From UHGV virus genome UHGV-0033517: 38,521 nt of DNA. The stretch is one strand, 5' to 3'. The DNA is from a virus. The notes beneath the pieces were generated by a model that was given only the letters and a program-made list of their open reading frames with translations, searched no databases and had not been told where the DNA came from. The position numbers were made by a program, and so were the translations under genes. Shown here piece by piece: positions 1 to 38,521 of this stretch (position 1 is the first letter of the stretch; every line of letters starts with the position of its first letter).

Positions 1-376
1 TAATGTCGTTGCCACGGGTGCCGTTGTAAATGGCCGTGGCGGTCAAGCTCCCAAGCGTAGCCGTTGCCGCCGCAGCGTCCGAGGCCGCCGGGCGATACAG
101 CAGAATCTTGCTGGGGCCAGCCGTCCGGTCGCTGCCTTTAAAGATTTCGTTCAAAAACCGGGCTTGCGTAGCGTACACGGGATACCCGCAAACGGGGGCG
201 GTGTCCTCCCCGGCCACAACCTCGGTAATCTTGCCCACAGGCCCCCAGCTCATAGGCTCGCAAATCGCAACCGTGCCACGCTCACCAATGGTCAGGCCCT
301 TTTCCTTTTTCGAGTTGAAGTTGATGTATACGCCGGGGCGTACCTTATTCTGAGCACTCCAATTCCCACCGGGCAT
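1..376 (-). CDS. Tail sheath protein, N-terminal 125 codons plus 1 nt; continues at 38521 (wrap-around)
   Basis: ATG at 376 with GGAGGTG RBS. Open minus frame down to position 1 with no stop (checked triplet by triplet), leaving 1 nt. It sits directly upstream (in transcription order) of the tube gene if the ends are joined. Confidence 0.6.
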   Translation of the reverse strand, partial: MPGGNWSAQNKVRPGVYINFNSKKEKGLTIGERGTVAICEPMSWGPVGKITEVVAGEDTAPVCGYPVYATQARFLNEIFKGSDRTAGPSKILLYRPAASDAAAATATLGSLTATAIYNGTRGNDI

Positions 377-526
377 TAGCTTTCACCTCCAAAAAACGCT
401 TTCACAGCGGCCTCTGCTGCCGCAATCGTGTATTCCGGCTCCTTAAGAATCGCTGCAAGGAAGTCCGGCTGAACATGAGAAAAGCGCTTGCTTTTCAGCA
501 GCGCTTCCCGTGTGTACTTCTGTTGT

Positions 527-979
527 TTATCGGGCAACTACAACACCTCCAATGTTGTCTATCAATTCCATTTTCGCCGAATCCTCGGGAATTAAAACCA
601 CCGTCCGCACCTCGAACCGATAATGCAAAGCGTCAAGGTCTACCCGCCATTCCCGGGCATAGGCATGGAGCAGGGCGTTCCCCGTGCCATCGGAGTACGG
701 GAACGTATCCATAAGCAGGTCAAGGGTTTCCCCGGCCCGCTGGTACTGCTGTTGCATGTCCGGCAGGTTATAATCCAGCAGATACGTCAAGTCCAGCCCC
801 AGCGTCCGCAAATACCGGCCATCCAACATCTTGTCCACGTTGCCGTACCGGGTTTGCAGGAAGAACATGGGCGGGGCGCTGCCCTGCTGGTTCGGGTCTT
901 CGTAAAACGTCACGCCGGGGAAGTGCGGGGCTAGGTATCCGGCTAGGCTTTTCGCCAAGGTCTCCAGTGTGAAAGTCAT
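527..979 (-). CDS. Hypothetical phage structural protein (tail-associated position between gp10-like gene and sheath)
   Basis: 150-aa ORF in the late operon, start overlapping the upstream gene stop. Position is analogous to a tail completion protein. Confidence 0.4.
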   Translation of the reverse strand: MTFTLETLAKSLAGYLAPHFPGVTFYEDPNQQGSAPPMFFLQTRYGNVDKMLDGRYLRTLGLDLTYLLDYNLPDMQQQYQRAGETLDLLMDTFPYSDGTGNALLHAYAREWRVDLDALHYRFEVRTVVLIPEDSAKMELIDNIGGVVVAR

Positions 980-1488
980 TCCATCGCCTCGCTTATCTTC
1001 TTATCCAGTTCTGCCGTGATGGTGTCCTCGAACGCTTTTATCGCCTTGTCCACCATAAACTCGCCCTTGACGTACTTTGTTTTGGTTCCGACCACAATCC
1101 CCACGTCCATGCTTTCATCGTATTCCAAAAGCCCGCTGTCAGGGTTGACGTACAAATGCGGAACAAAGTGCCTGTCCATGCGGTGGCCATCGTTGACGTA
1201 GGACGCATACTCTTGGTTATTGTTCAGCTCGGTCACAAACTCGTTCCCACGTTGGGCGGCAACGGGCTTGCTGTCTCGCTGCCACGCCCCCTTTAGCTGG
1301 CCGCTTACCGTGTTGGTGCCAATATACGCACCACGGCCCGTGCCGGTCTTTGGCGGGGTTGCCGCCGCAGCGGCGGTAATGGCGGCATTGGTAGCCGTTT
1401 CCATGGTCTCCCGGATAATCCCCGGGATGTCCCGTTTCAGCTTTTTCAGCTGGCCCAGCCTGCGTTGGAGGGAGATGTTTACGCTCAT
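976..1488 (-). CDS. HK97 gp10-like head-tail/tail component protein
   Basis: 170 aa. N-terminal pattern RRLGQLKKLKRDIPGII..AITAAAAA..KTGTGRGA resembles the HK97 gp10 family. Position between connector genes and sheath. Confidence 0.45.
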   Translation of the reverse strand: MSVNISLQRRLGQLKKLKRDIPGIIRETMETATNAAITAAAAATPPKTGTGRGAYIGTNTVSGQLKGAWQRDSKPVAAQRGNEFVTELNNNQEYASYVNDGHRMDRHFVPHLYVNPDSGLLEYDESMDVGIVVGTKTKYVKGEFMVDKAIKAFEDTITAELDKKISEAME

Positions 1489-1871
1489 AGCCCCACCCGC
1501 TCCTTCTGGTACAGCTTAATCTGCTGGTGTGCCAGCCCCGGCAGCGCCGCCCCGAACGGCTCATAGTACGGGTTCGGCTCGGCGGCGAACGCCCGTATCT
1601 TTTTGGGGGTCTGCCCCAGTACCCCACCCCGGGTAATCCGCAGCTCGTCTCCCGCCCGCACGTCCACAGACAGGTCACAGGCCAGCATATATTGCGGGTT
1701 AATGCTGGCAGCGTCCTGTGCCATGGTTATGGGCCGGGCGTCCTTTTGGTACAAGCGGCAGGGCACCCCGGTTGCAATCTGTTCCCGGGTCTGTCGGGTC
1801 AGGCTCCCGTCCTCGGTTTTTGTCACACGGTAAAGGTCAAAGGTATCCGTGTACCAGTCAGCAAAGTTCAT
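1485..1871 (-). CDS. Head-tail joining / head closure protein
   Basis: 128 aa, 4-nt overlap with flanking genes in the head-tail connector block. Size and position are typical. Confidence 0.4.
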   Translation of the reverse strand: MNFADWYTDTFDLYRVTKTEDGSLTRQTREQIATGVPCRLYQKDARPITMAQDAASINPQYMLACDLSVDVRAGDELRITRGGVLGQTPKKIRAFAAEPNPYYEPFGAALPGLAHQQIKLYQKERVGL

Positions 1872-1880
1872 GCCCTCACC

Positions 1881-2369
1881 TCAAATCACATACGAACCGC
1901 CCATCCCGGCCATCCGGGCACGGGTAGCAAGCTGTTGGCCGTACTGGGTGGCGTTCAGGTCGCCCCAGTCCTGCGTGGCTTTCGTCAGGGCGGCGGTGTC
2001 GTAGCGGATACTGGTGTCCCCCAGCGTGGCCGATTCCACCACGCCGATGGTCGCCCCGGTGGCCGCCGCCTGTGCCGGGGTGGCGCTGCTCTCCGCATAC
2101 GTCCGCAGGTACAGGGTGGCGTAATGCGCCACATACAGCCCACAGGCGTACCGCCAGCCGTTCAGCCATTTATCCGGCTGGATACTGGCGTTGGCCTGAG
2201 CGATAAACTCAGCCAGCACGGCTTCGGGAACCAGCGACACGCCCTCCGCTGTGTAAAACTGGGGGAAGTCGGCCCGGAACATTTCTTCGGCGTAGGCTCC
2301 CGTACCGTGGCCGATGTTCGCCGCCGCTGATTTCACGCCGAAAAATTGGGGTTTTTCTAGGTCATACAT
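1881..2369 (-). CDS. Head-tail connector/adaptor protein (DUF4054-like)
   Basis: 162 aa. Motif VPEAVLAEFIAQANASIQPDKWLNGWRYACGLYVAHYATL resembles the DUF4054 connector family. Immediately downstream of the capsid block. Confidence 0.4.
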   Translation of the reverse strand: MYDLEKPQFFGVKSAAANIGHGTGAYAEEMFRADFPQFYTAEGVSLVPEAVLAEFIAQANASIQPDKWLNGWRYACGLYVAHYATLYLRTYAESSATPAQAAATGATIGVVESATLGDTSIRYDTAALTKATQDWGDLNATQYGQQLATRARMAGMGGSYVI

Positions 2370-2384
2370 TCCGGGCCGCCTCCT

Positions 2385-2642
2385 TTATTCCTTTCCGGAT
2401 TCCGTGGTTTTGGGCTTGCGGGTGCTCCGGGGCACCGGCTTTTCCAGCAGGGGCACCACGTCCCTGTCCTTGTAGCTTTTGGGTAAATCAATCCAGCCGG
2501 AATCCACGCAGGCCTGAAAATAGGCCGTTTTCGTGGCCCAGTCGGGAAGCTCGCCGATGTACCCCTTTAACAGGGGATAGGCAAGGCTCCCGTCCGGACT
2601 GGGTAGGATGATATTGCGTTTCGCAATCACACGCATACGCAC
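2385..2642 (-). CDS. Hypothetical small head-module protein
   Basis: 85-aa ORF tightly packed after the major capsid gene. Confidence 0.35.
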   Translation of the reverse strand: MRMRVIAKRNIILPSPDGSLAYPLLKGYIGELPDWATKTAYFQACVDSGWIDLPKSYKDRDVVPLLEKPVPRSTRKPKTTESGKE

Positions 2643-2648
2643 ACCGCC

Positions 2649-3680
2649 TTAAATGCCGTCCCAGTAGGTGATAGTCTGAGGATACAGCACCTGCACCTCG
2701 GACACGTTGGCCATGTAAGCGGTGTCATAGCAGACGCTGGTGGGGTTGGCCTGGCTCATAACCCGGGACAGGGGCACCAGCTCATCCACGTTCACAAAGC
2801 GCTCGTGGTTGACGTATACCACCATACGGTCAGCCCCGGAAGCGCCAGCGCCCTTGCACCAGCGGGTGCCGCCGATGTACAGGCTGCCGCCGTTCTTTGC
2901 GGCAATATTGTTCTTCATAATGTAGTCCATGATGGATTCGGTGGCCAAATTGGTCATGGGGGTGTTCATAATGTAGGTGTACTGGTCATAAGGCAGCAGG
3001 ATGTGGTTGGGCATGGCGGATTCATCATACTCAGCCGCCGCCCAGGTGGTGGTAATGGCCTTGTTGATGTCATCCAAAATCTGCAGGGGGGTTTTCTGCG
3101 ACCAGTTGGTGGAATCCCCGGTGCCGGTAGCGGCCACAGTGGTATGCACTGCGTCAGCGTTGTTCACAAGCCCGGTAGTGCCGTAGGTCGCCAGCCCGGT
3201 GTACACGTTTTCGTCCATGTGCTTGTCGTAGGCCATTCTTACGCCATCGGTCAGCATTTGGTCAAGCGAACGCCCGATGAAGTTGGCCCGCTGCATATCC
3301 TGAAACATAACACGCAAAGCCGCAGCGAATACATGTGCCTTAAACACTCCCTTGTCCACATTGGCCTGAATCACGGGCAGGCCGTTAGCGCCGCCGGCGG
3401 TCACGGGGCCGTCCCCGCTGCCGTTGGTCAGGCCGTAGCCCACGGACATGGCCGAAACATAATCAACCCAGCCTCCGCCGGTGTTGATGTTAATGTCCCG
3501 GGGGTAGGTCACACTGGTCAGGGGCTTCCGGATTAACGGGTCACGCTTTTCCAGTTCGGATTCCAGAAACGCCTGCCCGGAAGCAATCCCGGCAGCGTCC
3601 ATGGTGGGCACACCCAGCATGGGAGCGGTGGTTTTAGCGCCGATTACACCGGCATCAAAAGTTCCAACATTCGTATACAT
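2649..3680 (-). CDS. Major capsid protein (DUF2184-like)
   Basis: 343 aa. Follows the DUF2213-like and DUF2190-like genes (a recurring trio). Gly/Thr-rich N-terminus typical of this capsid family. Confidence 0.6.
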   Translation of the reverse strand: MYTNVGTFDAGVIGAKTTAPMLGVPTMDAAGIASGQAFLESELEKRDPLIRKPLTSVTYPRDININTGGGWVDYVSAMSVGYGLTNGSGDGPVTAGGANGLPVIQANVDKGVFKAHVFAAALRVMFQDMQRANFIGRSLDQMLTDGVRMAYDKHMDENVYTGLATYGTTGLVNNADAVHTTVAATGTGDSTNWSQKTPLQILDDINKAITTTWAAAEYDESAMPNHILLPYDQYTYIMNTPMTNLATESIMDYIMKNNIAAKNGGSLYIGGTRWCKGAGASGADRMVVYVNHERFVNVDELVPLSRVMSQANPTSVCYDTAYMANVSEVQVLYPQTITYWDGI

Positions 3681-3697
3681 ATCGGTTATACCTCCTT

Positions 3698-4210
3698 TTA
3701 GGCGTTGATGATGGTCATAATCCGCATGGCGGCCACCTTGTTGGTGTCAGCAGCCCCGCCCCACTGGCAGTTGGTCAGCTGTACGGTGTTGGTGCTGTCG
3801 GCCTCGGCCTCCAGCCCGCCCACAACAGCGTTGGGGAAGCTGGTGTTTGCGGCGACACGCAGATACACAGCGCCGCCCAGTGCGGGGGTGCCTTTCTGGC
3901 AAATAACGTTGACAACGCCACGCTTAAACACGGACACGGGTTCCCCGGGGGCGTACTGGCCTACGCCCTGCTCCAGATAGGCCAGGGTGGTTTTAACCTC
4001 CCGGGAAGCGATACCGACAAACTTGGCGGCGGTGTCGCTTGCGCCCATGGCCACCACCTTGGTGCCGTCATATTTCAGGGGGGTGCCAAAGGTGATAGCG
4101 GCGGTGCCGCCAGCGGGGTGGGTGTCAATAATCATATCGGGCTGCTGGGCATAAGACCCGGCGAACCCGTTGGGCATGGTTTTGCCGATAACCTGAGTAG
4201 TCAGTGCCAT
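3698..4210 (-). CDS. DUF2190-like head structural/decoration protein
   Basis: 170 aa between the protease/scaffold-like gene and the capsid gene. Composition and position typical of the DUF2190 family. Confidence 0.45.
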   Translation of the reverse strand: MALTTQVIGKTMPNGFAGSYAQQPDMIIDTHPAGGTAAITFGTPLKYDGTKVVAMGASDTAAKFVGIASREVKTTLAYLEQGVGQYAPGEPVSVFKRGVVNVICQKGTPALGGAVYLRVAANTSFPNAVVGGLEAEADSTNTVQLTNCQWGGAADTNKVAAMRIMTIINA

Positions 4211-4213
4211 TTT

Positions 4214-5410
4214 TTAGTCCTCCTTCTTCGTCTTGTGGGGGTTGCGAGAATCATAGGCCGACTTCTGGTCAGCGCAAATCTTGGTGTACCGGGCCGCAGA
4301 CTTCGCAGCGGTGCTTGCGCTGTCCTGCGTGGCTTTCAGTACGTTCTTGGCAAAGTTCTTGGTGTCCAAAGCCGCCAGCAAAGCGTCCGTTACCCGGGCC
4401 TTTTCGGTGGGGTCTTTGATTTCGGCCACAGCGGGGCGCACCTTTTTCAGCATTTCCACAGCGGTCTTGTTCTTCATGGGGTCTTTGCTCATCTCCTCGG
4501 CGGGCAGGGTCACAGCGTCCTCCTGCTCGGCCTTGGTCTCGCCGGACAAGCGACCAATCAGCTCGTCAATGTCGCCTTCATCGGTGACCTTCTTTTCTTC
4601 GTCCTCGGGCTTCATGCGCTTTTCCAGCGTTTCCAGCCGCTCTAAAATTCTGTCCAGCTTGCTGCCCAAATCGTCGCCCTTGGGGGCCTTCTCCACCATT
4701 ACGTCAGCTGCGGGTACATCCTCCGGCGCTTTTTCGGCGGGTACAGATTCCAGCGCAGTGGCGGCGGCATCGGCCATGGCCTCCATTTCCTCCGGTTCAG
4801 CGTCCTTTGCCGCTCGACCGAAGAGTTTCAGTACGTCCTTGGTAAATCCAGCCATTTTTTTACCTCCTTTAGGTTTGGCTTCGGGGTTTGCCCCCATTTC
4901 GTCTTTTATGGCTACTTCGTGGCCAGCTCGGCCACGGGGGACAACCGCCACATGGTTCCCCCGAATTTTTTTCTGCGCAAAGCCTCCCGGGGTCTCCACA
5001 TAATCGCAAAGATACCCACAGGAGATTTCTCGCTTGATACCGTTTTGCACGTCCTGAGCAAGGCAGGAATCGTTGATGTACAGGTCGCCCATTAGAAATT
5101 GGCCGTCCCTGCGTATGTTTTGGACGTGCCCCCGTGCGTAGGCCCCAAAGTTCTCCGGGCTTACGTTCTCGGCGGGGTGCCCGTCCGTGACCGGTTTCCC
5201 CTCGAAGCTGGCCATGGCCTCCGGGGAGAACACTTCGTCCTCCTCCCGCAACACCGTGATTGGCCGCATGGGGTCGCCGTCCAAACCCAGTTCCCCGGCA
5301 GTATAGGGCTGTTCCCCCGTCCGGGCAATGGGTACATTCTTGCAAATCAAAAAGCCCTCCGCCGTTTCCAGCTGGTTGGGGCTTATCGGTGTGCCGTAAT
5401 AATAAATCAT
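4214..5410 (-). CDS. Prohead protease/scaffold-like protein (DUF2213-like N-domain plus acidic coiled-coil C-terminal half)
   Basis: 398 aa. N-terminus YYYGTPISPNQLE..GKPVTDGHPAE is DUF2213-like. C-terminal half is E/K/A-rich and scaffold-like. Confidence 0.5.
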   Translation of the reverse strand: MIYYYGTPISPNQLETAEGFLICKNVPIARTGEQPYTAGELGLDGDPMRPITVLREEDEVFSPEAMASFEGKPVTDGHPAENVSPENFGAYARGHVQNIRRDGQFLMGDLYINDSCLAQDVQNGIKREISCGYLCDYVETPGGFAQKKIRGNHVAVVPRGRAGHEVAIKDEMGANPEAKPKGGKKMAGFTKDVLKLFGRAAKDAEPEEMEAMADAAATALESVPAEKAPEDVPAADVMVEKAPKGDDLGSKLDRILERLETLEKRMKPEDEEKKVTDEGDIDELIGRLSGETKAEQEDAVTLPAEEMSKDPMKNKTAVEMLKKVRPAVAEIKDPTEKARVTDALLAALDTKNFAKNVLKATQDSASTAAKSAARYTKICADQKSAYDSRNPHKTKKED

Positions 5411-5631
5411 CAGTCTACCCCCGGAATCAGCTGTTCTTGGTCGGCGCTCTCGCCGGATACCGCTTCCAGCAGCAGGTCGGCCACAATGGCCTGATGGTCG
5501 GTTTCATCGGCGTTCAGCTCTAAAAGCTTCGGCACGGCCTCCTCTGGGGCCAGCGCCAAAAGCGCCGTGTATATTCGCACTGTCTCCGTTTCCATGGCCA
5601 GCGCTCGTTTTAACAAAGTGATGTAATCCAT
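5410..5631 (-). CDS. Hypothetical protein
   Basis: 73-aa ORF. GGAGGTG RBS downstream of the duplicated terminator-like element. Confidence 0.35.
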   Translation of the reverse strand: MDYITLLKRALAMETETVRIYTALLALAPEEAVPKLLELNADETDHQAIVADLLLEAVSGESADQEQLIPGVD

Positions 5632-5646
5632 AGCGCACCTCCGTAA

Positions 5647-5680
5647 ATAAAAAAGCGCCTGCTATTGCAAACGCTTAAAA
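5647..5680 (-). terminator. Intrinsic terminator-like hairpin, copy 1 of an identical 34-bp element
   Basis: Minus-strand RNA: AAGCGUUUGC-AAUA-GCAGGCGCUU 10-bp stem (2 G.U) with tetraloop, followed by UUUUUUAU. Identical to the copy at 7747–7780. Confidence 0.45.
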
Positions 5681-5694
5681 CGAACTATTTTGTT

Positions 5695-5943
5695 TTACTC
5701 CTCGACGATTTCCCAGCGGCCCTCCGTTGTGCTGCCGTCTGGGGCGTGTGGATTTGTTTTGGGATAAAGATAATCTTCCCCGCTATCGTCAATTACCCGG
5801 TAATAGTCTTCATCTTCCTCCCACGCTTCATAAACCTTCCCGTTTGTAAGGCCGAAAAGATAAAACGATTCACCAACAAACCTTAACCGCATTGTCTTTT
5901 CCGGTTTGTTTATGGGCTCAGGCGGTTCATAATACTCCACCAT
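5695..5943 (-). CDS. Hypothetical protein
   Basis: 82-aa ORF between the MuF-like gene and the terminator element. Confidence 0.35.
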   Translation of the reverse strand: MVEYYEPPEPINKPEKTMRLRFVGESFYLFGLTNGKVYEAWEEDEDYYRVIDDSGEDYLYPKTNPHAPDGSTTEGRWEIVEE

Positions 5944-5944
5944 A

Positions 5945-7360
5945 TCAATTCTCCTTCCTGTTTTTCACTTTCGTATCGTACTGTACCCCGTCCTTTTCTA
6001 CCCAATGCACATCGAACGTATACTTGGCACTTTCAATTTTGCCAACTTTTTTACTCCAATCGTTGGGGTCTCCACCAAATCGCTCGGCATAGTCCTGTGC
6101 GTGCCGGAAGGCAACTTTGCTTCCCTTCCCTGCAATGGTGCGCACCGCTACAAATTTTGCACCAGTTGGAATAAAGGCGTTCTCCCCGTTCCAATTATAA
6201 TCCAAACGGCTTTGTAAGTAAAACCTTTCTTTGTATTCTTTTTCCCACTCTAGGTACTTCTCGTCCCCGGCCCGTTTGTGCTTTAAGAACGTCTGGAACA
6301 TTTTCGGACATTTATCCCCCAAGGCCAACCGATACCGCTCCCATTGCCGGTAGTCGTTTAACATCCGGCTCCGGGCCTTCTGGTTCCGGCGGTAAGCCTC
6401 TATCTGCTTCTGGCTTCGGGGGTCTACCGTGAACGGGTTGGTTTTTGGGCTGGAAAATCGCTTGATTCGTTCAATCTCCTCCGGGGTTTTTCCGTTTTTT
6501 GTCCACGGGAGGAGGATATGAAGGCAATTTGGGTGGATATTCAGCCAAGTGTTCGTCAGCTCGTCCGGGCCACCCGGGTCGATTTTGCCGAAGGCGCTGG
6601 CCAGCGGTGGGAAATCCGGGTCTTTTCCGCTTCGGGAGTACACCCGGCCCTCGAACGGAGCGCACACCGGGCAGGTGGTGGCATGGCTGCTTATCTGGTA
6701 CAGGTCATGTTCGGGGTCTGCGGTCAGCACGGCCATGATTTCCGCTTGCCGGGAGGTTGTCCGGCAGACCATGTTCCCGTAGGTGTGTAGGCTCCATTTT
6801 CGGCCTGCCTTGTCCACAAACGCCTCCACGCCGCTTTGTTGCAGCTCCCGCACCAGCTCCGGCACGGCTTTGCGAAACCCAATCCCCCGGGCCTCCATGT
6901 TTGCCACCGTCTGCAAGCCTACCGGCCGAAAAACATCGTTCCGGGGTGGGCCAATCACGCTTTCCCGTAGGGACTGCATGACGTGTAGCTCTGCCTCCAC
7001 CACCTCGCCCATCAGGTTGTTGACCAACTGCTGCACCACATCGTACTGGGTGGCGGTCAGGGCTTCGGCGGCAGCATAGCCCCGAAGGTGTTTCTCCACC
7101 GGCTCCAACACCCGCCGGGCCTCCGGAACCCGGACGTAAAACTGCTTTTCCACCATTTTGGGGACGTACTTCCAACATTCGTCCTCCAAACTTTTCAGGA
7201 TTTTTTGTACCCGGCTCAGCGCCGCCACGGCGTGGTAATCCACGTTCCCCAGCGACCGCAACCGGGCGATTTCGTTGATAATGTCCGTTTCGGCCTTGAG
7301 AAACGCTTTCCGCAGGGCTTCCAGCTCCGCCGCATTGGGGGCCTTGTTAATCTTCGGCAT
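5945..7360 (-). CDS. MuF-like head morphogenesis / minor capsid protein (SPP1 gp7 family) with about 200-aa C-terminal extension
   Basis: 471 aa. Conserved MuF motif region ..HATTCPVCAPFEGRVYS... Location after the portal. Confidence 0.65.
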   Translation of the reverse strand: MPKINKAPNAAELEALRKAFLKAETDIINEIARLRSLGNVDYHAVAALSRVQKILKSLEDECWKYVPKMVEKQFYVRVPEARRVLEPVEKHLRGYAAAEALTATQYDVVQQLVNNLMGEVVEAELHVMQSLRESVIGPPRNDVFRPVGLQTVANMEARGIGFRKAVPELVRELQQSGVEAFVDKAGRKWSLHTYGNMVCRTTSRQAEIMAVLTADPEHDLYQISSHATTCPVCAPFEGRVYSRSGKDPDFPPLASAFGKIDPGGPDELTNTWLNIHPNCLHILLPWTKNGKTPEEIERIKRFSSPKTNPFTVDPRSQKQIEAYRRNQKARSRMLNDYRQWERYRLALGDKCPKMFQTFLKHKRAGDEKYLEWEKEYKERFYLQSRLDYNWNGENAFIPTGAKFVAVRTIAGKGSKVAFRHAQDYAERFGGDPNDWSKKVGKIESAKYTFDVHWVEKDGVQYDTKVKNRKEN

Positions 7361-7363
7361 GGC

Positions 7364-7747: not shown

Positions 7748-7780
7748 TAAAAAAGCGCCTGCTATTGCAAACGCTTAAAA
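7747..7780 (-). terminator. Intrinsic terminator-like hairpin, copy 2 of the identical 34-bp element
   Basis: Same sequence as 5647–5680, located between the portal stop and the next gene's RBS. Confidence 0.45.
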
Positions 7781-7817
7781 GGCTTTATTTGTTCACCCGG
7801 CTTTTCGTTTTTTATTG

Positions 7818-11479: not shown

Positions 11480-11522
11480 TTTACCACCCCCTAAAAAAAT
11501 TAAAAAACTTTGCAAAAAGGTA

Positions 11523-27376: not shown

Positions 27377-27453
27377 AGCAATGCCTCCTTTGGATTGGTT
27401 GTTTTTATGGTCTGCTGCCATCCGGCAAGCCCCACCAGCAGTTAATAACATGA

Positions 27454-30956: not shown

Positions 30957-32064
30957 TAAGCGTCACCGTCCCCATTGTCGGAACCTGCTGCGTGGTTCCG
31001 GTCTCCGTCAGCACAAGGTCTTGCGTCTGGTTGTTCAGTTTCGTGTTCTCGGCGTTTAAAACCCCGGTCACACCCACAATCGCCGCCACAATCTGCGCCC
31101 GGTATACGTTGGCCGTATACGTCACGCCCCCGGCTACCACGGGGGTGGCCCATGCTTTCCGTACGCTTAACAGGTACGCCGCAATGGCCGCTTCAATGGC
31201 CGGTTTCACCTGCCCAACGGTGTACCCCGGGGCCAGCGTCAGCGTGGAGGACACGTTCACCGTGACCGCCGTGGGGGCCACCACGGTTACCTTAGCACCG
31301 ATGGGCGCAATGCCCAGCCCCAACCCCTGATTGGGGGGCGGGTCAACGGCGTTCTGGACGGTTGTGACCAGCGTACCGGAGGCCGGGGCGAAGTCCGCAC
31401 CCAGAATGGAGCATTTCACCGTGCCGCCGCCGTCCCAAGTGGGGTACACCTGCACCGAACCAACGCCGTCAATGGCGGGGATTTCCGAACGATACGAGGC
31501 CACGTTCCCGCCAAAGGGGCGGTCAGTCAGAGCGGTAATCAGCCGTGCCCGGAGTTCTTCATCGGTCTCGGTGTCGTCACCGGGCACCAAAATATCCGTT
31601 AGCTGGGCCGTGGTCAGCCCTGCAATGAACGTAATCGGCAAAATCGTCCCGGAATAGCTGTTCCCAATCTCCCCGGGGGTCTCGGCGGTCAGCTGATACT
31701 GGTTAGCGGTATCCGTTGCCGCCGTCACGATAAAGTTGATACTGGTTGCGCCGTCCACGGTGGAGAACCGGGAACCCAGAGGCACGGCCATGTTAAACAC
31801 GCCCAGCCGCACCGCCGCCGAGGCCGGGTACCGGGAAATGCCGCCGATAATCGCCAGATAGTCCAGCGATTGGCCCACCGCCGTCTGGACGAAGGCCGCA
31901 CGCTGCACCTGATTCAGCGTTAAATAGTATTCCTCCAGCGCATACGCCGCCGGGCCTAACGCTGTCTGAATCATGCTGCCGTCACGCTTGTCCAGCGTGT
32001 CCGGCACATCATCCAGCATCCCGGCAAGAATATTCTGGTAGGTCTTTTGGGTAAAATCAATCAA
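30943..32064 (-). CDS. Baseplate J-like protein (XkdT-like)
   Basis: 373 aa. Size, position and conserved N-terminal region (..YQNILAGMLDDVPDTLDKRDGSMI..) typical of the Baseplate_J family. Confidence 0.65.
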   Translation of the reverse strand: MIDFTQKTYQNILAGMLDDVPDTLDKRDGSMIQTALGPAAYALEEYYLTLNQVQRAAFVQTAVGQSLDYLAIIGGISRYPASAAVRLGVFNMAVPLGSRFSTVDGATSINFIVTAATDTANQYQLTAETPGEIGNSYSGTILPITFIAGLTTAQLTDILVPGDDTETDEELRARLITALTDRPFGGNVASYRSEIPAIDGVGSVQVYPTWDGGGTVKCSILGADFAPASGTLVTTVQNAVDPPPNQGLGLGIAPIGAKVTVVAPTAVTVNVSSTLTLAPGYTVGQVKPAIEAAIAAYLLSVRKAWATPVVAGGVTYTANVYRAQIVAAIVGVTGVLNAENTKLNNQTQDLVLTETGTTQQVPTMGTVTLSVSA

Positions 32065-32471
32065 GACAACCCCACCTCCATTTGTTCTTCGATTTCCCCG
32101 AACACGGTGTTGACCGTAAAGGAAACCGTCATTTTATCGCCGGAAACCGAATGCTTAAAGTCGCTGATTCCCCGGATACGGGAATCCACCGAAAATGCGT
32201 CCTTCAACCGGCGTTGGAGCTCCACGGATACATACCCCGGCTGCTGGCCGATTAGCCCATCCCAGCGCATACCAAAGTTCGGGGTATAGATTTGCCATCG
32301 GAACCGCTCCACGTTCAGAATCACTTCAATGGTCTGGCGTATCGCCGTAAGCCCGTCCACCTTGCCGCTGATTCGATGGGAGACCGGGTCGGCATAGTAG
32401 GTCAGCCCCGGCTGGTTCCGGAACGTCACGCCCCCGGAAATATCTATGTTTGTGCTCGGTAAAACGCCCAT
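32061..32471 (-). CDS. Baseplate wedge-type protein (XkdS-like)
   Basis: 136-aa ORF, 4-nt overlaps in the baseplate gene string. Confidence 0.4.
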   Translation of the reverse strand: MGVLPSTNIDISGGVTFRNQPGLTYYADPVSHRISGKVDGLTAIRQTIEVILNVERFRWQIYTPNFGMRWDGLIGQQPGYVSVELQRRLKDAFSVDSRIRGISDFKHSVSGDKMTVSFTVNTVFGEIEEQMEVGLS

Positions 32472-32472
32472 G

Positions 32473-32916
32473 TTACACCTCGTAAACCTTAGATAGCACG
32501 ATAAATTTTTGCCCGTTCTGTACCCGCAGCAGCAGCACCTTGTCCCCGGCCTTTAGCCCGGGCTGGATGATAACGAACCCGTCCTCGCTGGGCACGGCCT
32601 TCCCGTCAATGTACCCCTGTACCCCGGACAACTCCGTGGAGCAGTTCCCCGCCGGTTGGCAAACCCCTTGGTTGTTGTAGAGGTCGGTCAATTCGTGGGT
32701 GTGCGTGGTCTCGTGGGAATGGGCCAGCGAAGTAAACTTCTTTTCGATAACGGATTCCGTCAGGATAAGCACCGGAGCTTTCAAGGGTGCCATCATACCG
32801 TTGATACTAATTTCCAGCGGGGAGGCGGAAACCACCGTGCCCACCCGCATATCCGTGGGCTGGGAGGCCCCTTGGCTTTGCTGTGCGATTTGATGTAATG
32901 CGTCCAACAGCTCCAT
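32473..32916 (-). CDS. XkdR-like baseplate protein
   Basis: 147-aa ORF in the baseplate gene string. Confidence 0.4.
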   Translation of the reverse strand: MELLDALHQIAQQSQGASQPTDMRVGTVVSASPLEISINGMMAPLKAPVLILTESVIEKKFTSLAHSHETTHTHELTDLYNNQGVCQPAGNCSTELSGVQGYIDGKAVPSEDGFVIIQPGLKAGDKVLLLRVQNGQKFIVLSKVYEV

Positions 32917-32927
32917 ACGCTTCCCCC

Positions 32928-33917
32928 CTAAATGGAATACAGCTCCAAAGTCATGGTGTGGTCGGAGTTCCGGAACGTGTGCGTGGCCTTTTCAATCAAC
33001 ATCCATTGGTCGAGGTCGATGTCCCCCAGACCTTTCACCTGCATAAGCACCATTTGCCCGGCGTTCAGGCCCAGTACCCCCAATGCCTCGGCGGTCACGG
33101 TACGCATTCGCCGGTTGTAGTATTCAAGGGTGGCCTCGGCCTGTGCCTTTAGTTGGGCTTCGTTCACGTCCCCGTCCACGGTCTGGTACAGCTGCAAAAG
33201 CCCCCAGCGGCCAATGGTGTCGGAGTTCTGGGCGATATACACGTCCGCTTTACCCGTTGATTCATTGGGGTGAACCAGCTTAACGGAGTTATAGGTCTGT
33301 TGGTCAATATCGGTTTTATAGTCGTAATCGGTCATCAGCGATTTGTCGCCCAGCATGACGTTGGATTTCATATCCCCGGCGGCCTTGAGGGAAAGGCCGT
33401 CCCCATTGTCGTAGAACACATACACCACACCGGTGTTCAAAAGGGTCTGGTTCACGGCCTCGCCGATAATATCAAGACAAGTCTGGTCTTCCTCAATTAA
33501 CGAGGGAATGGCGTACCCGGTGTTCGCAATCTCGCCCATAGGGAGTTCGAGGTCTGCGCCGATTTGCCGAATAATGTCCCCGGCGGTCTGCCCGTAAAAC
33601 GCATAGGAGGCGTTGGCCTTGAGATACCGTAGCCGGTCATAGCAGGTCACATCAATCACGCCCCAGCGGTCTTTGCTTTTAGTGAACACCCAACCAAAGA
33701 ACACCAGTTTCCCGTCCACCGAAAACCGTACCACGTCACCCTCCACAAAGGAAATATCCCCGGCCTTTATCAGCGTAAAGTCCAGCTGCCCCGGTTGCCC
33801 GGTGCGGTTTGTGGTATAGGTGGTCTCCGACACACAAGGCGCAGCGTCCCACAGCTTCCCGGTGCGCTTCTCTAAAATAATCAGTTCGCAGTTGGTCACT
33901 CGCTCACCACCTGACAA
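32928..33917 (-). CDS. XkdQ-like / late-control-D-like tail protein
   Basis: 329-aa ORF downstream of the tape measure and LysM-position gene, as in PBSX-like tails. Confidence 0.45.
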   Translation of the reverse strand: MSGGERVTNCELIILEKRTGKLWDAAPCVSETTYTTNRTGQPGQLDFTLIKAGDISFVEGDVVRFSVDGKLVFFGWVFTKSKDRWGVIDVTCYDRLRYLKANASYAFYGQTAGDIIRQIGADLELPMGEIANTGYAIPSLIEEDQTCLDIIGEAVNQTLLNTGVVYVFYDNGDGLSLKAAGDMKSNVMLGDKSLMTDYDYKTDIDQQTYNSVKLVHPNESTGKADVYIAQNSDTIGRWGLLQLYQTVDGDVNEAQLKAQAEATLEYYNRRMRTVTAEALGVLGLNAGQMVLMQVKGLGDIDLDQWMLIEKATHTFRNSDHTMTLELYSI

Positions 33918-34645
33918 TCTTCACTCTTCACCCAGCCAAGTGCGCCGCCGCTTTCGGTGTTGATATGCACCGGGTACGCCCGGGTGTCGTCATTGGTCAC
34001 GATGCGAGACACCACAAAGGTACCGCCATTGCCGTTCCCGTGGGGTTCGTCGCCGTAGCTGCTGTAATAGTAGGGGCCGTTGACAACAACTTTACTTCCC
34101 ACCACCAGCTGCGACTTGGGCACCTCCCTCGGGGTTTCCGTTGTGGCCACCGCATTCCCGCCGGTTGAATCGGTCTTGATGGTCACGGTCAGGGGCGTGT
34201 AATCCTTGTACTCGGTCAGTTCCAAATCGTAGTAAAAGTCCCCGGTTTCGGCCCCTCGCTCCTCATAGGAAAAGCCAGTCACCAACACCGGGAACCCTGC
34301 GTCCTCGGTCATGTACTGTTCGCCGTTTTCGTAGTAGCGAACGGGAGTATACACAAGAATTTCCTTCTCGGTCATAGCCCGGTCGAAAAAGTCAAGGTAG
34401 AACGCTGCCGTTTCAAACTCGCCCACAGTCAGGGTTAATAAGTCTGGCCGCCCGGGGAAATAGCTGGAAATCTTGATTCCCCGTAGTCCGGGGGTACGGG
34501 GCACCATGATGGGGCCTATCCCCAAAACGTTGTATTCCTCGTTTTCTGTGTCACGGGATACGGGCAGCGTTTCCGGGTTAATCGGTAACCGAACCAGTAG
34601 CCCATCGGTCTGCCGCCGGAAAATAATACTGTAATCGTTTCGCAT
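33896..34645 (-). CDS. XkdP-position tail protein (no obvious LysM motif)
   Basis: Start refined to MRNDYSIIF (TAAGGAGG RBS overlapping the TMP stop). 250 aa. Confidence 0.4.
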   Translation of the reverse strand: MRNDYSIIFRRQTDGLLVRLPINPETLPVSRDTENEEYNVLGIGPIMVPRTPGLRGIKISSYFPGRPDLLTLTVGEFETAAFYLDFFDRAMTEKEILVYTPVRYYENGEQYMTEDAGFPVLVTGFSYEERGAETGDFYYDLELTEYKDYTPLTVTIKTDSTGGNAVATTETPREVPKSQLVVGSKVVVNGPYYYSSYGDEPHGNGNGGTFVVSRIVTNDDTRAYPVHINTESGGALGWVKSEDCQVVSE

Positions 34646-34655
34646 GGCCGCCTCC

Positions 34656-36443
34656 TTAGAACGCCCGGGCCGTAGTCCGTACCGAACCGGACGCAGCCTG
34701 TTCCACAATAATGTCACGAATCGCCGCCGCCAGCGCCCGGCGGTCTTCCGGGGTGTTCCCGGTGTTCGCCCCGGTCACGTTAATGACGGGGGTCTGGGCT
34801 GTTAGGTTAATATTGTTCACATACTTCCGGGTAGCCACGTCCAACAGGCTTTTTACGTCCTCTTTGCTCATATCCACAGACTTCTGGATTGCCTTGGTAC
34901 TGTCCTTAATATCCCCCACGTCCGTGCCCAGCTGGTCAAAGGCCATGCCCCCCAGCCCGCTCATATCGAAGTCGGAACCGAAGTCGAACAGGTTTGAACC
35001 TTTGTCGTAGCCCTTGGCAAACTCTTCTGAAAGGTCGGCGTAGTCCTTGGTTTGGAAATACTCCGTCCATCCGGAGTTCTCCTTTTCGGCAGCGGACTTC
35101 CCGGCCAAATCGTTCACCAAATTGTCGATACCGGAGGTAAGGTCTACCTCTACTCCGGGGAGCTTGTTAATCAAATCTTCAATGCCGTGGGCAATATTGG
35201 AAATAAAGCCCAATACCGTAGTGGCCATATCGTAGAACAGAATTTTTACAGCGCTCACCGGAGAGTGAAACACATTCCCAATGAAGTTGGCAAAGTTCGC
35301 AAAGGCGTTCCACATAAAAGTGGTCACGTTATTGGCCACCGCTGCCAGCGTATATATGGCCCCTACGATAAGCCCAGTGGCGGATATGCTTTGCCCTGTG
35401 GCCTTGTTGTAGGCCGCTACGCCGGCATAAATCAGGCCGATAATCAGGGCAATGCCCATAATAATCCAGGTAATGGGGCTGGCCAGCAGCGCTGAATTGA
35501 ACGTAAACACCGCCGCCGAAGCCGCCGCCGTGTTCCCGGTCAGCATCCCGAAGGCAATGGACAGAATGTTGACCACCCCGGTGTATATCGTAGTTGCCAC
35601 CGAGGCAATTTTCGTCCAGTTGGCTGCAACTTGAAACACCGCAAACGCAGCGCCGACACCAATCACTAGCGGCCCGATAATCCGGATATTGCTGGCCAGC
35701 CAGGATACCCCCTTAAGCACCGGGTTCAGCGCCATAATCGCCGTGTTTCGGAACGAGTTCCACACCTGCCCCCAGGTCATGGGCATTTGCTCAAACTGAG
35801 CGTTGGTTTCCGCTGCCGCCTGTAGCATGGCATTCTTAACGACTGCTGCCGTTACCTGCCCCTGTGCGGCCATGTTCCGCATTTCCCCGGTGGTCACGCC
35901 CATGTATTGGGCAATGGTCTGGGCAATCATGGGGGTCTGCTCCAATATAGAGTTCAGCTCATCCCCTCGCAGCACCCCGGAGGACATGGCTTGTGTCAGC
36001 TGTAGCATGGCCGCTTGGGCGTTCTGTGTGTTCGTGCCGGAAAGCGCCATTTGTTTATTGATTTGCTCCGCAAAAGCAATAATTTCCGCTGTGCTGTCAA
36101 AGGCCGACCCGGCCAGTGTGCCCAGCTTGGCCACCATATCCGCCGTGTCCCGAAATGCCCCCCCGGAGCGCTGGGCCGACTGGTAAACCATCATAGTCAG
36201 CTGGTTGGTGGTCTGTAGGCCGTCATTCATCCGCTCCAGCCGGGCCGTGGTCTGGGTCAGTTCATCCGAAAGGCTCACCAGCATTTGAATGCCTTTTAGC
36301 CCGGCAAACCCGCCTGCCAACCGCCGCACGCTGCCCAAAAGCTTGTCGGTAGCCGTGTCCGCCATATCCATTTTCTGAATGTATTTATCCAGATTGATTG
36401 AGAATCGGTCGGTCAAAACCAGTTCTTCGTTGATTCTAGCCAC
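34656..36443 (-). CDS. Tail tape measure protein
   Basis: 595 aa. GTG start. Ala/Gln-rich helical N-terminal half, central multi-TM hydrophobic block, C-terminal Gly/Asp-rich region. Confidence 0.75.
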   Translation of the reverse strand: MARINEELVLTDRFSINLDKYIQKMDMADTATDKLLGSVRRLAGGFAGLKGIQMLVSLSDELTQTTARLERMNDGLQTTNQLTMMVYQSAQRSGGAFRDTADMVAKLGTLAGSAFDSTAEIIAFAEQINKQMALSGTNTQNAQAAMLQLTQAMSSGVLRGDELNSILEQTPMIAQTIAQYMGVTTGEMRNMAAQGQVTAAVVKNAMLQAAAETNAQFEQMPMTWGQVWNSFRNTAIMALNPVLKGVSWLASNIRIIGPLVIGVGAAFAVFQVAANWTKIASVATTIYTGVVNILSIAFGMLTGNTAAASAAVFTFNSALLASPITWIIMGIALIIGLIYAGVAAYNKATGQSISATGLIVGAIYTLAAVANNVTTFMWNAFANFANFIGNVFHSPVSAVKILFYDMATTVLGFISNIAHGIEDLINKLPGVEVDLTSGIDNLVNDLAGKSAAEKENSGWTEYFQTKDYADLSEEFAKGYDKGSNLFDFGSDFDMSGLGGMAFDQLGTDVGDIKDSTKAIQKSVDMSKEDVKSLLDVATRKYVNNINLTAQTPVINVTGANTGNTPEDRRALAAAIRDIIVEQAASGSVRTTARAF

Positions 36444-36615
36444 GCTGTACCCCCTTTTCGGCCTTCTCCCGGTTGGCTACATCCTGTTTTACAAATTCTG
36501 CTACCAGCAGGCGCTCCCGGAGAGGCAAGGCCGCATACTTGGACGGCGGCCAGCCCCAGTTAATCAGACAGTAATAGGCTACCGCCGTTTCCGGGTCGCC
36601 CCCCATCAGTTTTTT
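36436..36615 (-). other. Programmed -1 frameshift site (A_AAA_AAC at 36615–36609) plus 57-codon extension frame, giving an extended G/GT-type chaperone product
   Basis: Slippery heptamer immediately 5' of the chaperone stop (36608–36606). The -1 frame is open for 57 codons (verified triplet by triplet). It ends at TAG 36438–36436, overlapping the TMP GTG start. Confidence 0.5.
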
Positions 36616-37043
36616 ACTGCTTCCTCCAAATCCCCATACCCGGAGAAGTCGGAGATTTCGCTCAACAGCTTTTTAAACTCTCCGGCCTTTAGCAACCGGC
36701 CCACAGCAATCAGGGGGTCAATGGTTTCGGCCATATCGCAAACCTCTTTGGCGGCAAAGTCCGGGAATACCGTACCGGCTACCACCAGCCGCCGGGACAG
36801 TTCCAGTTCGTCCACGTATTCCATCCGCTGCCCGTCTACCTTTTTCGTTTTGCGGCACTGCTTGGCCATTCGCTCCGCTTCATCCTGCGACAGCGCCCGC
36901 ACCTTAAACAGGACGGGGTTCCCATCCTTGTCCCGGAACCGGTCGGAAATAAATACCTCCCGTTCCTCGTTGTTGTCTACGGGGTGCAGAAAATTATACA
37001 GTTCGCTGCTCATGTTTTTCCTCCAATTCTTTAGAATGGGCAA
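36606..37043 (-). CDS. Tail assembly chaperone (XkdN-like / gpG analogue)
   Basis: 145 aa between the tube and tape-measure genes. Acidic. Ends in the slippery sequence. Confidence 0.5.
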   Translation of the reverse strand: MPILKNWRKNMSSELYNFLHPVDNNEEREVFISDRFRDKDGNPVLFKVRALSQDEAERMAKQCRKTKKVDGQRMEYVDELELSRRLVVAGTVFPDFAAKEVCDMAETIDPLIAVGRLLKAGEFKKLLSEISDFSGYGDLEEAVKN

Positions 37044-37063
37044 CCGTCCATGGTGTGCCCTCC

Positions 37064-37546
37064 TTAGTTCCCCAGCTTTGCAGGGTCGTTAAACGCCTGC
37101 AACCGGGACATCCGGGTATAGGCAAAGTTAAAATCATAGTTCAGCATGGCCTCCTCGTCATTCAGAATGGCCGAGGGGATTGTCCCGGTCAGCGTACAGC
37201 CGTAATACGCCATGGCTTGCGTGCCAATGGTGGTGGTGGGGTCGCTGTTGGTAAGCTGAATATCAAACTCCGGCATAACGCCTTCGTTGGCGTATTGCAG
37301 CATCATATCCAAAAAGATATTGGACAACGGGCAGCCGAAATAGATATTCCCGGTTCCGGTCTGTTTCACGCCGTTGGCCTTGTTTTGTACGATTCGAGTA
37401 CCGATAACCCGCATGTCGTTGCTCTGGATTTCGGCCTCGGCCCGGATGTTCTTCATCCCGGCGACCTCGATGTTCTTACCGTTCAGGGTCACAAAAATTT
37501 TACCTTCTGCGCCGTTGACGGTATCCCGTGCCAGTAAGTAGCTCAT
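37064..37546 (-). CDS. Tail tube protein (XkdM-like)
   Basis: 160 aa directly downstream of the sheath gene. Size and position are typical. Confidence 0.55.
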   Translation of the reverse strand: MSYLLARDTVNGAEGKIFVTLNGKNIEVAGMKNIRAEAEIQSNDMRVIGTRIVQNKANGVKQTGTGNIYFGCPLSNIFLDMMLQYANEGVMPEFDIQLTNSDPTTTIGTQAMAYYGCTLTGTIPSAILNDEEAMLNYDFNFAYTRMSRLQAFNDPAKLGN

Positions 37547-37559
37547 GGTTTTCCCTCCT

Positions 37560-38521
37560 TTACGACACAGTAATGGACATGTAAATTTTTTCCACGGAAT
37601 CCACCGGCTGCACGCCGATGTTAATCACAATGGAATCAATGCTCTCGCCGGGAAGCACTTCCACGTCCTCGGCGGTGAAGTTTTGAATCCCCTGATTGCT
37701 CTGAATGTCCAGCAGGTACCCGACAATCGCCGATTTGAACAGCAGCCGCCCGGCCTCGTTGTTGTTGACCACGCCGATAAACTCGTTGGAAAACTGGGTG
37801 TACACATCGTTGGCAATGGTGCTCAGCAGTCGGATAACCCGGTTCTTGTGGTAGGCTTCGATGTACTGGTCGGTGTAGGTCTTAAAGCTGTCAATATCCC
37901 ACTCGACCTTGACTGCGCCGTTGTCGGCTGTCATCACCAGTTCCCCGGCCTGTAGTGCGGCAATGGTCTGGGCGTTGGTCAGTTTCGGGGACACGTCCAC
38001 GGCGGCGGGGTACTTGGCATAGGTCAGGCTTTCGTTGTATTTCGCCCCAGCCTGTACGCCGCCTACCCACCAACAGGTCTGTTGCGGGGTCAGGGTGGTG
38101 CCATCGTTCAGGACAACGCCGTTCTTGACGTTGATAATCTGCCAACTATCCGGGTCAGTTTGCCCGGCGGCCACCAGCTGGCAATACTTGCCTTCGTTGG
38201 CCCACATCCGCTTTACAAAGTTCTGGAAGGCGGCAATGGTGGTGGTGTCGCTGCCGTCATAGATTAAAATATCGAACCGATACGGTTCCAGCGCCGTCAG
38301 GAACGTGCTGTAAGCCGCAGCGTTCACCGTGCCGTCTGCGCCGCCGGTCAGCGCCACCCCGGCATTGGCGGTCAGCGCCCCGGTGCCGGTGAACCCTACC
38401 CAGCTATTATTAGACAGGTCGGCCACGGTTTTCCCGTTCTGGCTATCCACCACGGCACCGTCCACAACGGTTTGCACCGTGAACGTCCCAACGGTGTCGG
38501 GGTCGGCCACGACCACAACGG
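37560..38521 (-). CDS. Tail sheath protein, C-terminal 320 codons. Continues from 376..1 across the window junction
   Basis: Track ORF 37560..38516 (GTG). Frame extends to 38521 leaving 2 nt that complete an ACC codon with position 1. Combined product about 445 aa. Confidence 0.7.
   Translation of the reverse strand, partial: VVVVADPDTVGTFTVQTVVDGAVVDSQNGKTVADLSNNSWVGFTGTGALTANAGVALTGGADGTVNAAAYSTFLTALEPYRFDILIYDGSDTTTIAAFQNFVKRMWANEGKYCQLVAAGQTDPDSWQIINVKNGVVLNDGTTLTPQQTCWWVGGVQAGAKYNESLTYAKYPAAVDVSPKLTNAQTIAALQAGELVMTADNGAVKVEWDIDSFKTYTDQYIEAYHKNRVIRLLSTIANDVYTQFSNEFIGVVNNNEAGRLLFKSAIVGYLLDIQSNQGIQNFTAEDVEVLPGESIDSIVINIGVQPVDSVEKIYMSITVS

Follow-up and report, generated by a model that had tools for sequence, protein, structure and literature searches.

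A 38,521-nt human gut phage sequence very probably represents a circularly closed temperate-phage genome opened within its tail sheath gene

The window analysed here (i.e. the whole 38,521-nt stretch of UHGV virus genome UHGV-0033517) contains terminase, portal, capsid, XkdK-type tail, lysis, integrase, CI/Cro-like switch and recombination modules, each in one copy and none duplicated. The assigned features are as follows.

1–376, minus: tail sheath, 5′ part, i.e. codons 1–125 and base 1 of codon 126 (ORF, Pfam, PHROG, PDB)
376–537, minus: 53-aa gene
527–979, minus: tail terminator (Pfam Phage_tail_terminator_8)
976–1488, minus: Neck1-like (neck/connector block, 527–2369)
1485–1871, minus: head-tail adaptor (neck/connector block)
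1881–2369, minus: virion protein (neck/connector block)
2649–3680, minus: major capsid protein (head block, 2649–5410)
3698–4210, minus: cement/decoration protein (head block)
4214–5410, minus: maturation protease/scaffold (head block)
5945–7360, minus: minor head protein (packaging block, 5945–11479)
7364–7747, minus: YjcQ-like (packaging block)
7818–9821, minus: portal (packaging block)
9799–11040, minus: large terminase (Terminase_6N, PF03237; PHROG)
11024–11479, minus: small terminase, P22-gp3-like (GP3_package, PF16677; PHROG)
14717–15553, minus: DUF6291 protein (recombination/replication block, 14717–18392)
15553–15867, minus: RusA-like (recombination/replication block)
15877–16326, minus: SSB (recombination/replication block)
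16612–17217, minus: NinB/Orf-like (recombination/replication block)
17198–17869, minus: exonuclease (recombination/replication block)
17871–18392, minus: Mu Gam-like (recombination/replication block)
19637–20121, minus: tandem array, 18 nt × 27, inside a 292-aa gene at 19502–20380 (repeat analysis, contig comparison)
23584–23823, minus: Cro-like HTH (divergent pair, 23584–24319)
23996–24319, plus: repressor-like HTH (divergent pair)
24920–25945, plus: tyrosine integrase, 341 aa (PHROG 1, E 2e-70; Pfam Phage_integrase, PF00589)
26037–26118, minus: candidate attP core, a conserved 82-nt island resembling a tRNA 3′ half, next to int
26300–26965, minus: Amidase_2 endolysin (distal block, 26300–28440)
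27122–27376, minus: 84-aa gene, possible holin, no family match (distal block)
27454–28440, minus: Peptidase_C1/Cu_amine_oxidN1 protein (distal block)
29173–30069, minus: fibre-like (contractile tail module, 29173–37546)
30069–30956, minus: Mu Gp48-like (tail module)
30943–32064, minus: baseplate J (tail module)
32061–32471, minus: sheath initiator (tail module)
32473–32916, minus: DUF2577 (tail module)
32928–33899, minus: XkdQ/YqbQ-like (tail module)
33896–34645, minus: XkdP-like (tail module)
34656–36443, minus: tape measure (tail module)
36606–37013 plus 36436–36606, minus: chaperone, XkdN-like (tail module)
37064–37546, minus: tube, DUF2001/XkdM-like (tail module)
37560–38521, minus: tail sheath, 3′ part, i.e. 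bases 2–3 of codon 126 to the stop at 37560–37562 (ORF, Pfam, PDB)

The terminase pair matches PHROG 606 and PHROG 2, and a Pfam E217_gp27 match lies within the neck/connector block. When position 38521 is joined to position 1, the modules run in the order early/recombination, terminase, portal, head, neck, sheath, tube, chaperone, tape measure, baseplate, fibre, lysis, attP, int and repressor/Cro, which closes a canonical temperate-phage circle as the original prediction held. The sheath gene is then placed between the tail terminator gene and the tube, chaperone and tape-measure genes, i.e. in the position predicted for it. A tRNA scan of the window returned no tRNA, nor was any gene for partition or plasmid replication recognised in it.

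We then focused on the sheath gene that is split at the window ends. Its 5′ part starts at an ATG (374–376, minus strand), preceded by a GGAGGTG ribosome-binding site with a 7-nt spacer, and the frame stays open to position 1 (125 codons plus 1 nt). The 3′ part runs stop-free from 38521 down to the stop at 37560–37562 and is short by exactly 1 nt. Re-deriving the frames gave the same one-nucleotide complement that had been predicted, and joining 38521 to 1 again produced the codon ACC (Thr126) and a product of 445 aa. Four sheath Pfam domains, each above its gathering score, are present in the joined product: Gp18_domIII_N (residues 33–65), Phage_sheath_domII (100–188), Phage_sheath_1 (189–335) and Phage_sheath_1C (347–444). 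The scores in bits (cut-offs in brackets) are 100.7 (31.4) for PF04984, 83.6 (26.9) for PF17482, 57.5 (31.4) for PF17481 and 28.5 (27) for PF22671. PHROG 279 ('tail sheath') covers residues 1–445 in one stretch (profile positions 1–483 of 489; E 4e-115), and residues 1–436 of PDB 3hxl_A align with sheath residues 1–443 in a single stretch that is gapless through residue 126 (E 4.6e-104). The end-to-end alignment of the joined product thus bears out the proposed sheath identity, and the collinearity of both references across residue 126 assigns the two halves to the same protein. This is a genuine tail-sheath gene by sequence assignment, and its product would polymerise around the tube and contract.

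The same gene is found whole elsewhere. Records of 6 contigs list the exact 445-aa sheath as a single called gene, and a 445-aa gene is also intact in contigs L001, L002, L007 and L022. Two 95% relatives from two further samples (L002 and L003) both carry an uninterrupted sheath gene. Residues around T126 are conserved in 11 full-length sheath variants, and we therefore rejected the idea that the protein is hypervariable where the two halves meet. At the nucleotide level, an 18-nt indel occurs in the L003 lineage ~100 nt from the cut. An apparently split sheath in L004 (118 + 318 aa) was also rejected as a biological feature, because a scaffold gap of 10 N and a 27-nt fold-back copy mark it as an assembly artefact.

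The join was checked in ENA contigs retrieved by exact protein look-up, and closure rests on independent assemblies, all of them short-read de Bruijn. Two contigs from other samples, i.e. L001 (ERZ27287383, MEGAHIT, contig k141_975951) and L007 (ERZ15610037, SPAdes), match the window at 100% identity over 6.0 and 4.0 kb across 38521|1. When rebuilt, k141_975951 (38468 nt) aligns without gaps from window position 19876 via 38521|1 to 19822, and its 24 mismatches to the window all fall within the tandem array at 19637–20121. The ends of k141_975951 lie at window positions 19822/19876 (~19.85 kb), in a stretch that the window itself covers without a break. The two sequences each span the other's break and are therefore reciprocal circular permutations, which supports the claim that the window ends are contiguous. 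The MEGAHIT and SPAdes assemblies, from different samples, share the join and the unit length and differ in their break points. The join lies in unique coding sequence rather than in a repeat, the window contains no internal duplication beyond short tandem arrays, and all relatives are on contigs of ~37–41 kb and none is longer. The exact 34-nt junction pattern had no match in the viral contig collection.

No terminal repeat was found on the window itself under the CheckV rule (a direct repeat of at least 20 nt). Direct terminal repeats (DTRs) with lengths of 55, 77 or 99 nt are k-mers of the assembler that remain after a random cut of a circular template (CheckV, PMC8116208). One sibling, scaffold_1794, is 38576 nt long (38521 + 55), shows 100% identity over 30.7 kb and continues beyond the window end into window positions 1–77; its 55-nt overlap was deduced from length and offset over the 30.7 kb compared. 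Another contig with the exact integrase and capsid proteins measures 38598 nt (38521 + 77). Because the siblings exceed the window by 55 and 77 nt and one runs 77 nt into its start, the overlap was evidently trimmed from the window, and the absent repeat reflects the detection rule rather than a property of the molecule.

The 18-nt array affects how the length is to be read. The window spans it, whereas k141_975951 is broken there, with a spurious overlap of 55 nt between its ends. Array copy number varies between assemblies, so the genome length is uncertain by ~100 nt.

The original prediction also placed an attP-like site at 26067–26106, between the endolysin and int genes. It lies inside the 82-nt island at 26037–26118, which two diverged relatives share at 100% identity. 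On its minus strand the island has a segment resembling a tRNA 3′ half, with a T arm (GCTGG-TTCAAGT-CCAGC) followed by TATCTTC. The Rfam tRNA model scores 16.8 bits (below the 29-bit cut-off), and ARAGORN calls a tRNA at the 70% threshold only, as a degenerate Gln(TTG), whereas a hand parse gives an anticodon loop with GAC (Val). This segment follows the int gene at ~115–165 nt on the opposite strand, and distant integrase relatives with 47–48% identity lie ~145 nt from tRNA-Trp or tRNA-Ser on long Clostridia contigs. These features make it plausible that 26037–26118 is the attP. The predicted site is a reasonable candidate, given its location in a conserved tRNA-like island beside int, but its integrated counterparts did not appear: the collections searched, where absence is no proof of absence, yielded no attB, attL or attR. 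Among the genome contigs, the integrase search gave a single relative, with 24% identity, from an Oscillospiraceae MAG. The 29-nt tRNA-like core matched two phage contigs only among the metagenome contigs, both in the attP form, and nothing in the viral contig collection. With neither an integrated copy nor a host attB recovered, a temperate life cycle and the attP are read here only from genes and geometry.

Taken together, we consider it very probable, on the sequence evidence, that the window is one unit-length, circularly closed temperate-phage genome opened inside the sheath gene. Against this, a linear fragment could end by chance in two unrelated frames of compatible phase; phase compatibility alone has p = 1/3, as had been conceded at the outset, and the window lacks a terminal repeat. 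However, the joined product matches 3HXL and PHROG 279 collinearly over its full length, gapless at residue 126, which is far beyond such chance, and the identical join in contigs from other samples already refutes this reading, whose probability we regard as negligible. It is also very unlikely that a repeat made a false circle, or that the join is chimeric and the true genome longer or rearranged. False DTR circles at repeats do happen, and the 18-nt array here both breaks k141_975951 and creates a spurious overlap, but the join is in unique coding sequence, two assemblers agree on it and on the unit length in different samples with different break points, and the gene set is complete and non-redundant.

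The integrase and the tRNA-like site would also fit a prophage excised from a host contig, with ends at att sites or at arbitrary trimming points. This has next to no probability, because both ends fall within one essential structural gene away from the att region, int, attP and endolysin are contiguous (i.e. un-integrated) in every contig seen, and no contig exceeds ~41 kb or carries host flanks. A further reading accepts the circle but has the element live for the most part outside the chromosome, as an episome (carrier state or phage-plasmid-like), and not as an integrating prophage. Only the attP form occurs, in dozens of contigs from many samples, and attL, attR and attB were not found in the collections searched. 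By contrast, partition and plasmid-replication genes were not recognised, and an intact tyrosine integrase lies beside the conserved tRNA-like island with the geometry seen in integrated relatives. Moreover, where free copies accompany a prophage, short-read assembly often puts phage and host on different contigs, and the probable host may be missing from these collections. We therefore judge the episome reading improbable. The related idea that a free circular episome is the main form in which the phage persists in the gut, with the tRNA-like site little used or a relic, is only slightly less doubtful.

For the preferred reading, i.e. a closed temperate-phage genome, the source would be a temperate phage of the Caudoviricetes, with a contractile tail and a genome of ~38.5 kb, present in human-gut metagenomes. 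Its reads, derived from a template that is circular or circularly permuted, would form a cycle in the assembly graph, which the assembler would print as a linear contig with an arbitrary node cut and a k-mer-long end overlap. The overlap would have been trimmed later, leaving the cut in sheath codon 126; this cut may be located at a graph branch, because the 18-nt indel polymorphism lies ~100 nt away. Integration would proceed by the tyrosine integrase at the tRNA-like 26037–26118, and the P22-gp3-like small terminase suggests that virion DNA may be linear and headful-packaged. The join, the sheath identity, the circular permutation and the single complete gene set are established, and the virion DNA is probably linear and permuted. 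'Circular' describes the assembly, not the physical form (i.e. an excised or replicative circle versus linear, terminally redundant, permuted virion DNA). With this reading of 'circular', the prediction of a complete circular genome agrees with the single non-duplicated gene set and the shared unit length.

Compared with known systems, the sheath is close to the XkdK-like prophage sheaths of Firmicutes whose structures are solved, DSY3957 of Desulfitobacterium hafniense (3HXL) and Lin1278 of Listeria innocua (3LML). It has 445 aa versus 446/460 aa for the 3HXL/3LML class, shares the four Pfam domains with both and aligns end to end with both (E 4.6e-104 and 3e-58). 3HXL is listed as a simple two-domain prophage sheath (PMC9230969). 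The gene context of XkdK-like systems is also shared, i.e. an XkdM-like tube, XkdN-like chaperone, tape measure and XkdP/Q/S/T-like baseplate. The sequence differs from 3HXL and 3LML, and the gene here is split merely by the linearisation point of the record. As in CheckV 'DTR' circular contigs (PMC8116208), there is a unit length, an arbitrary cut, siblings longer by 55 and 77 nt and permuted relatives; unlike them, the window has had its overlap removed, so that the standard DTR test fails and closure is reached via other assemblies.

The GenBank entries 'MAG TPA: Caudoviricetes sp.' (NCBI nr) include sheath (DAH29572.1/DAK02324.1), capsid (DAH29578.1) and integrase (DAH29581.1) proteins that share 90%-identity clusters with those of the window and are not identical in sequence; the named sheath member P0018 is 98% identical to the window sheath. 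The best cultured matches are temperate myoviruses of Firmicutes of the Streptococcus phage EJ-1 and Clostridium phage phiCT453A type (~42 kb, annotated XkdK-like sheath, 39–42% sheath identity), a distant relationship, and megablast with the full window as query returned no nucleotide match among GenBank phages. The head module resembles a lineage other than EJ-1/phiCT453A (Pfam Pa193_gp24, E217_gp27 and Major_capside). Prophages whose tyrosine integrases target tRNA 3′ ends share the arrangement of int followed by an opposite-strand tRNA-3′-like segment; the relatives adjoin tRNA-Trp or tRNA-Ser, whereas here the site is a candidate read from sequence.

In brief, the finding is correct but routine, an already known kind of thing with near-identical proteins in NCBI nr. 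It adds nothing to phage biology, because most circular contigs can be expected to be opened within a gene, and its value is practical, mainly for annotation. The two edge ORFs are one whole sheath gene, as predicted, and no gene is missing at the edges. The sequence is usable as a complete genome, and rotation to start at the small terminase or the attP is advised before annotation or comparison.

A minus-strand ATG (374–376), preceded by GGAGGTG at a 7-nt spacer, opens a frame that runs without a stop down to position 1 (125 codons plus one base), and the frame ending at the stop 37560–37562 is open as far as 38521, one base short. Once 38521 is joined to 1, the codon across the junction reads ACC and the product has 445 aa. 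The original prediction had described these ORFs as one sheath gene split across contiguous ends, and our re-derivation of the start, ribosome-binding site, open frames, ACC codon and product length agrees with it in every detail. Compatible phase of two edge frames is by itself a 1-in-3 event; the match goes beyond chance because joining yields a whole tail sheath protein. In Pfam, Gp18_domIII_N, Phage_sheath_domII, Phage_sheath_1 and Phage_sheath_1C all score above their gathering thresholds and follow one another in the correct order. The alignment to sheath proteins proposed as a check is likewise full length: PHROG 279 ('tail sheath') covers residues 1–445 in a single stretch (E 4e-115), and PDB 3HXL (DSY3957, a solved prophage sheath of 446 aa) matches residues 1–443 in one stretch (E 4.6e-104), gap-free through residue 126 ('RGNDITVVVVADPD' versus 'RGNDITLVIQENID'). 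The identical 445-aa sequence is recorded as a single called gene on six contigs, and residues around the join are conserved in eleven full-length sheath variants.

ENA metagenome contigs from several other samples were retrieved by exact look-up of the adjacent tube protein. There the sheath gene is uninterrupted, with a 53-aa gene on one side and the tube gene on the other; its product has 445 aa in loci L001, L002 and L007 but 439 aa in L003. The joined window is reproduced at 100% identity, centred on the join, over 6.0 kb in L001 (ERZ27287383, MEGAHIT contig k141_975951) and 4.0 kb in L007 (ERZ15610037, SPAdes); the relatives L002 and L003 (about 95%) likewise span it. The predicted contiguity of the window ends is therefore borne out in other samples.

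We rebuilt k141_975951 (38468 nt) whole from three overlapping loci, without conflict, and aligned it to the doubled window. It aligns end-to-end and gap-free (19876 through 38521|1 to 19822), and its 24 mismatches all lie within the 18-nt tandem array at 19637–20121. The window runs uninterrupted through the repeat array in which this contig is broken, and the contig in turn runs through the window's own break; such reciprocal breaks are possible only with a circular, concatemeric or permuted template. A sibling contig, scaffold_1794 (ERZ28614723), has 38576 nt (38521+55), is 100% identical to the window across the 30.7 kb compared (offset 22 nt), and runs beyond the window's last base into 1–77, while another contig with exact integrase and capsid proteins has 38598 nt (38521+77). 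This is exactly the pattern reported by the CheckV authors (PMC8116208), in which direct terminal repeats cluster at lengths of 55, 77 and 99 nt, since an assembler opens a circular template at a random position, leaving a repeat of k-mer length. No terminal repeat is present on the window itself, so its overlap was presumably trimmed. Contigs with close relatives are about 37–41 kb, none longer. Nearly all window genes are on the minus strand, and each module occurs once, without duplication. They are given below in the direction of transcription, followed by the two plus-strand genes.

Minus, first in order: Cro-like and several small HTH genes
19502–20380, minus: 292-aa repeat protein
Next: Mu Gam-like, exonuclease, NinB/Orf-like, SSB, RusA-like, DUF6291
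Next: small terminase (GP3_package), large terminase (Terminase_6N), portal, YjcQ-like, minor head protein
Next: protease/scaffold, cement protein, major capsid protein, adaptor/neck/terminator genes
Next, spanning the join: sheath
Next: tube (DUF2001), XkdN-like chaperone, tape measure, XkdP/Q-like, DUF2577
Next: sheath initiator, baseplate J, Mu Gp48-like, fibre-like protein
Next: Peptidase_C1 protein, 84-aa gene, Amidase_2 endolysin
24920–25945, plus: integrase
23996–24319, plus: HTH repressor

The genome is that of an ordinary temperate myovirus whose tail is of the PBSX/XkdK type, and the join, the circular permutation and the single set of modules together support the predicted complete circular phage genome.

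Near the join (within about 100 nt), several assemblies are interrupted or faulty, a clustering that is partly selection bias since contigs were chosen for carrying the adjacent tube gene. The contigs scaffold_1794 and NODE_534 end at window 77 and 103. In L004, the sheath looks split (118 + 318 aa) not through a frameshift but through an assembly artefact at 8956–8985 (window about 41), where a 10-N scaffold gap precedes 27 nt of adjoining sequence copied in inverted (fold-back) orientation. The sheath gene of the L003/L005 lineage (439-aa product; L003 8668–9987) lacks 18 nt and diverges locally at window about 104–131, a GC-rich, Ala-rich stretch near residues 82–107, and several contigs end no more than about 100 nt away. 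A bubble in the assembly graph caused by strain differences is therefore a plausible reason for these contig ends.

The proposed attP-like site at 26067–26106 remains a good candidate. Between int and the endolysin, 26061–26110 (minus strand) resembles a tRNA 3' half (...AGGTC GCTGG TTCAAGT CCAGC TATCTTC A...), scoring 16.8 bits against the Rfam tRNA model (cut-off 29 bits) and called by ARAGORN as a degenerate tRNA at the 70% threshold only. The site also falls within an 82-nt island (26037–26118) perfectly conserved in two relatives whose identity across the region is 87% and 95%, with diverged flanks. On long Clostridia contigs, integrases 47–48% identical to that of the window are arranged in the same way: a tRNA-Trp or tRNA-Ser lies on the opposite strand, its 3' end about 145 nt away. 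All contigs seen have the un-integrated configuration, and no attB, attL or attR was found in the genome, metagenome and viral contig collections searched.

No GenBank phage matches the window at the nucleotide level, and the nearest cultured sheaths (Streptococcus EJ-1 and Clostridium phiCT453A) are 39–42% identical. Its sheath, capsid and integrase share 90%-identity clusters with NCBI nr entries named 'MAG TPA: ... [Caudoviricetes sp.]', including the sheath P0018 (98% identity). Sample names (Hadza, for example) suggest a human gut origin, and distant relatives of the integrase are named as Clostridia.

Several further features were also noted. The 18-nt unit (27 tandem copies) encodes about 27 hexapeptide repeats (GSIKAG, GLIEAG, EWIKAD and others) in the 292-aa protein, which has no PHROG match and is possibly a beta-helix-like repeat protein whose repeats vary in copy number; assemblies disagree on the array, which would be about 108 nt shorter if k141_975951 were closed on its 55-nt overlap. 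Within the DUF6291 gene (14717–15553), clustered short direct repeats at 14995–15331, comprising five 44-nt units (TCAAAACCCCCGGGTTTTT...GGGGGGGGTTATT) and 22-nt and 12-nt tandem repeats, resemble an iteron-type replication origin inside an initiator gene. Two 45-nt direct repeats (5646–5690 and 7746–7790; 91% identity, 2100 nt apart), each with the appearance of a minus-strand terminator-type hairpin, flank the block of YjcQ-like, minor head and 82-aa genes. The minor head protein (5945–7360) has 471 aa in the window; its counterparts in the 95% relatives are longer, at 715 aa (L002 264–2411) and 799 aa (L003 463–2862), and their Pfam Intein_splicing match indicates an intein that the window genome lacks. 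In L002, the sheath and tube genes are separated by a 224-aa NUMOD4/HNH_3 homing-endonuclease gene (9253–9927), which the window does not have at the corresponding place (about 37547–37559). Between the tail-fibre region and lysis genes, a 328-aa protein (27454–28440, minus) combines Peptidase_C1 (papain-like) and Cu_amine_oxidN1, an unusual pairing for a phage distal-tail/lysis block. Beside the Cro-like gene, overlapping convergent genes at 23226–23553 weakly match HicB (57 aa, minus) and Arc (61 aa, plus), possibly an antitoxin or regulator pair.

A closed assembly says nothing about whether the packaged DNA is circular. Given the P22-gp3-like small terminase and the Terminase_6N large terminase, family membership suggests headful-packaged, terminally redundant, permuted linear DNA as the likeliest form. 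Integration would open the circle at about 26.04–26.12 kb and leave the sheath gene whole in the middle. The split sheath is real, though it is a consequence of writing a circular assembly as a linear record; neither this kind of cut nor the phage lineage is new. In practice, the record should be treated as a complete genome, with the edge ORFs joined and the sequence rotated before annotation.
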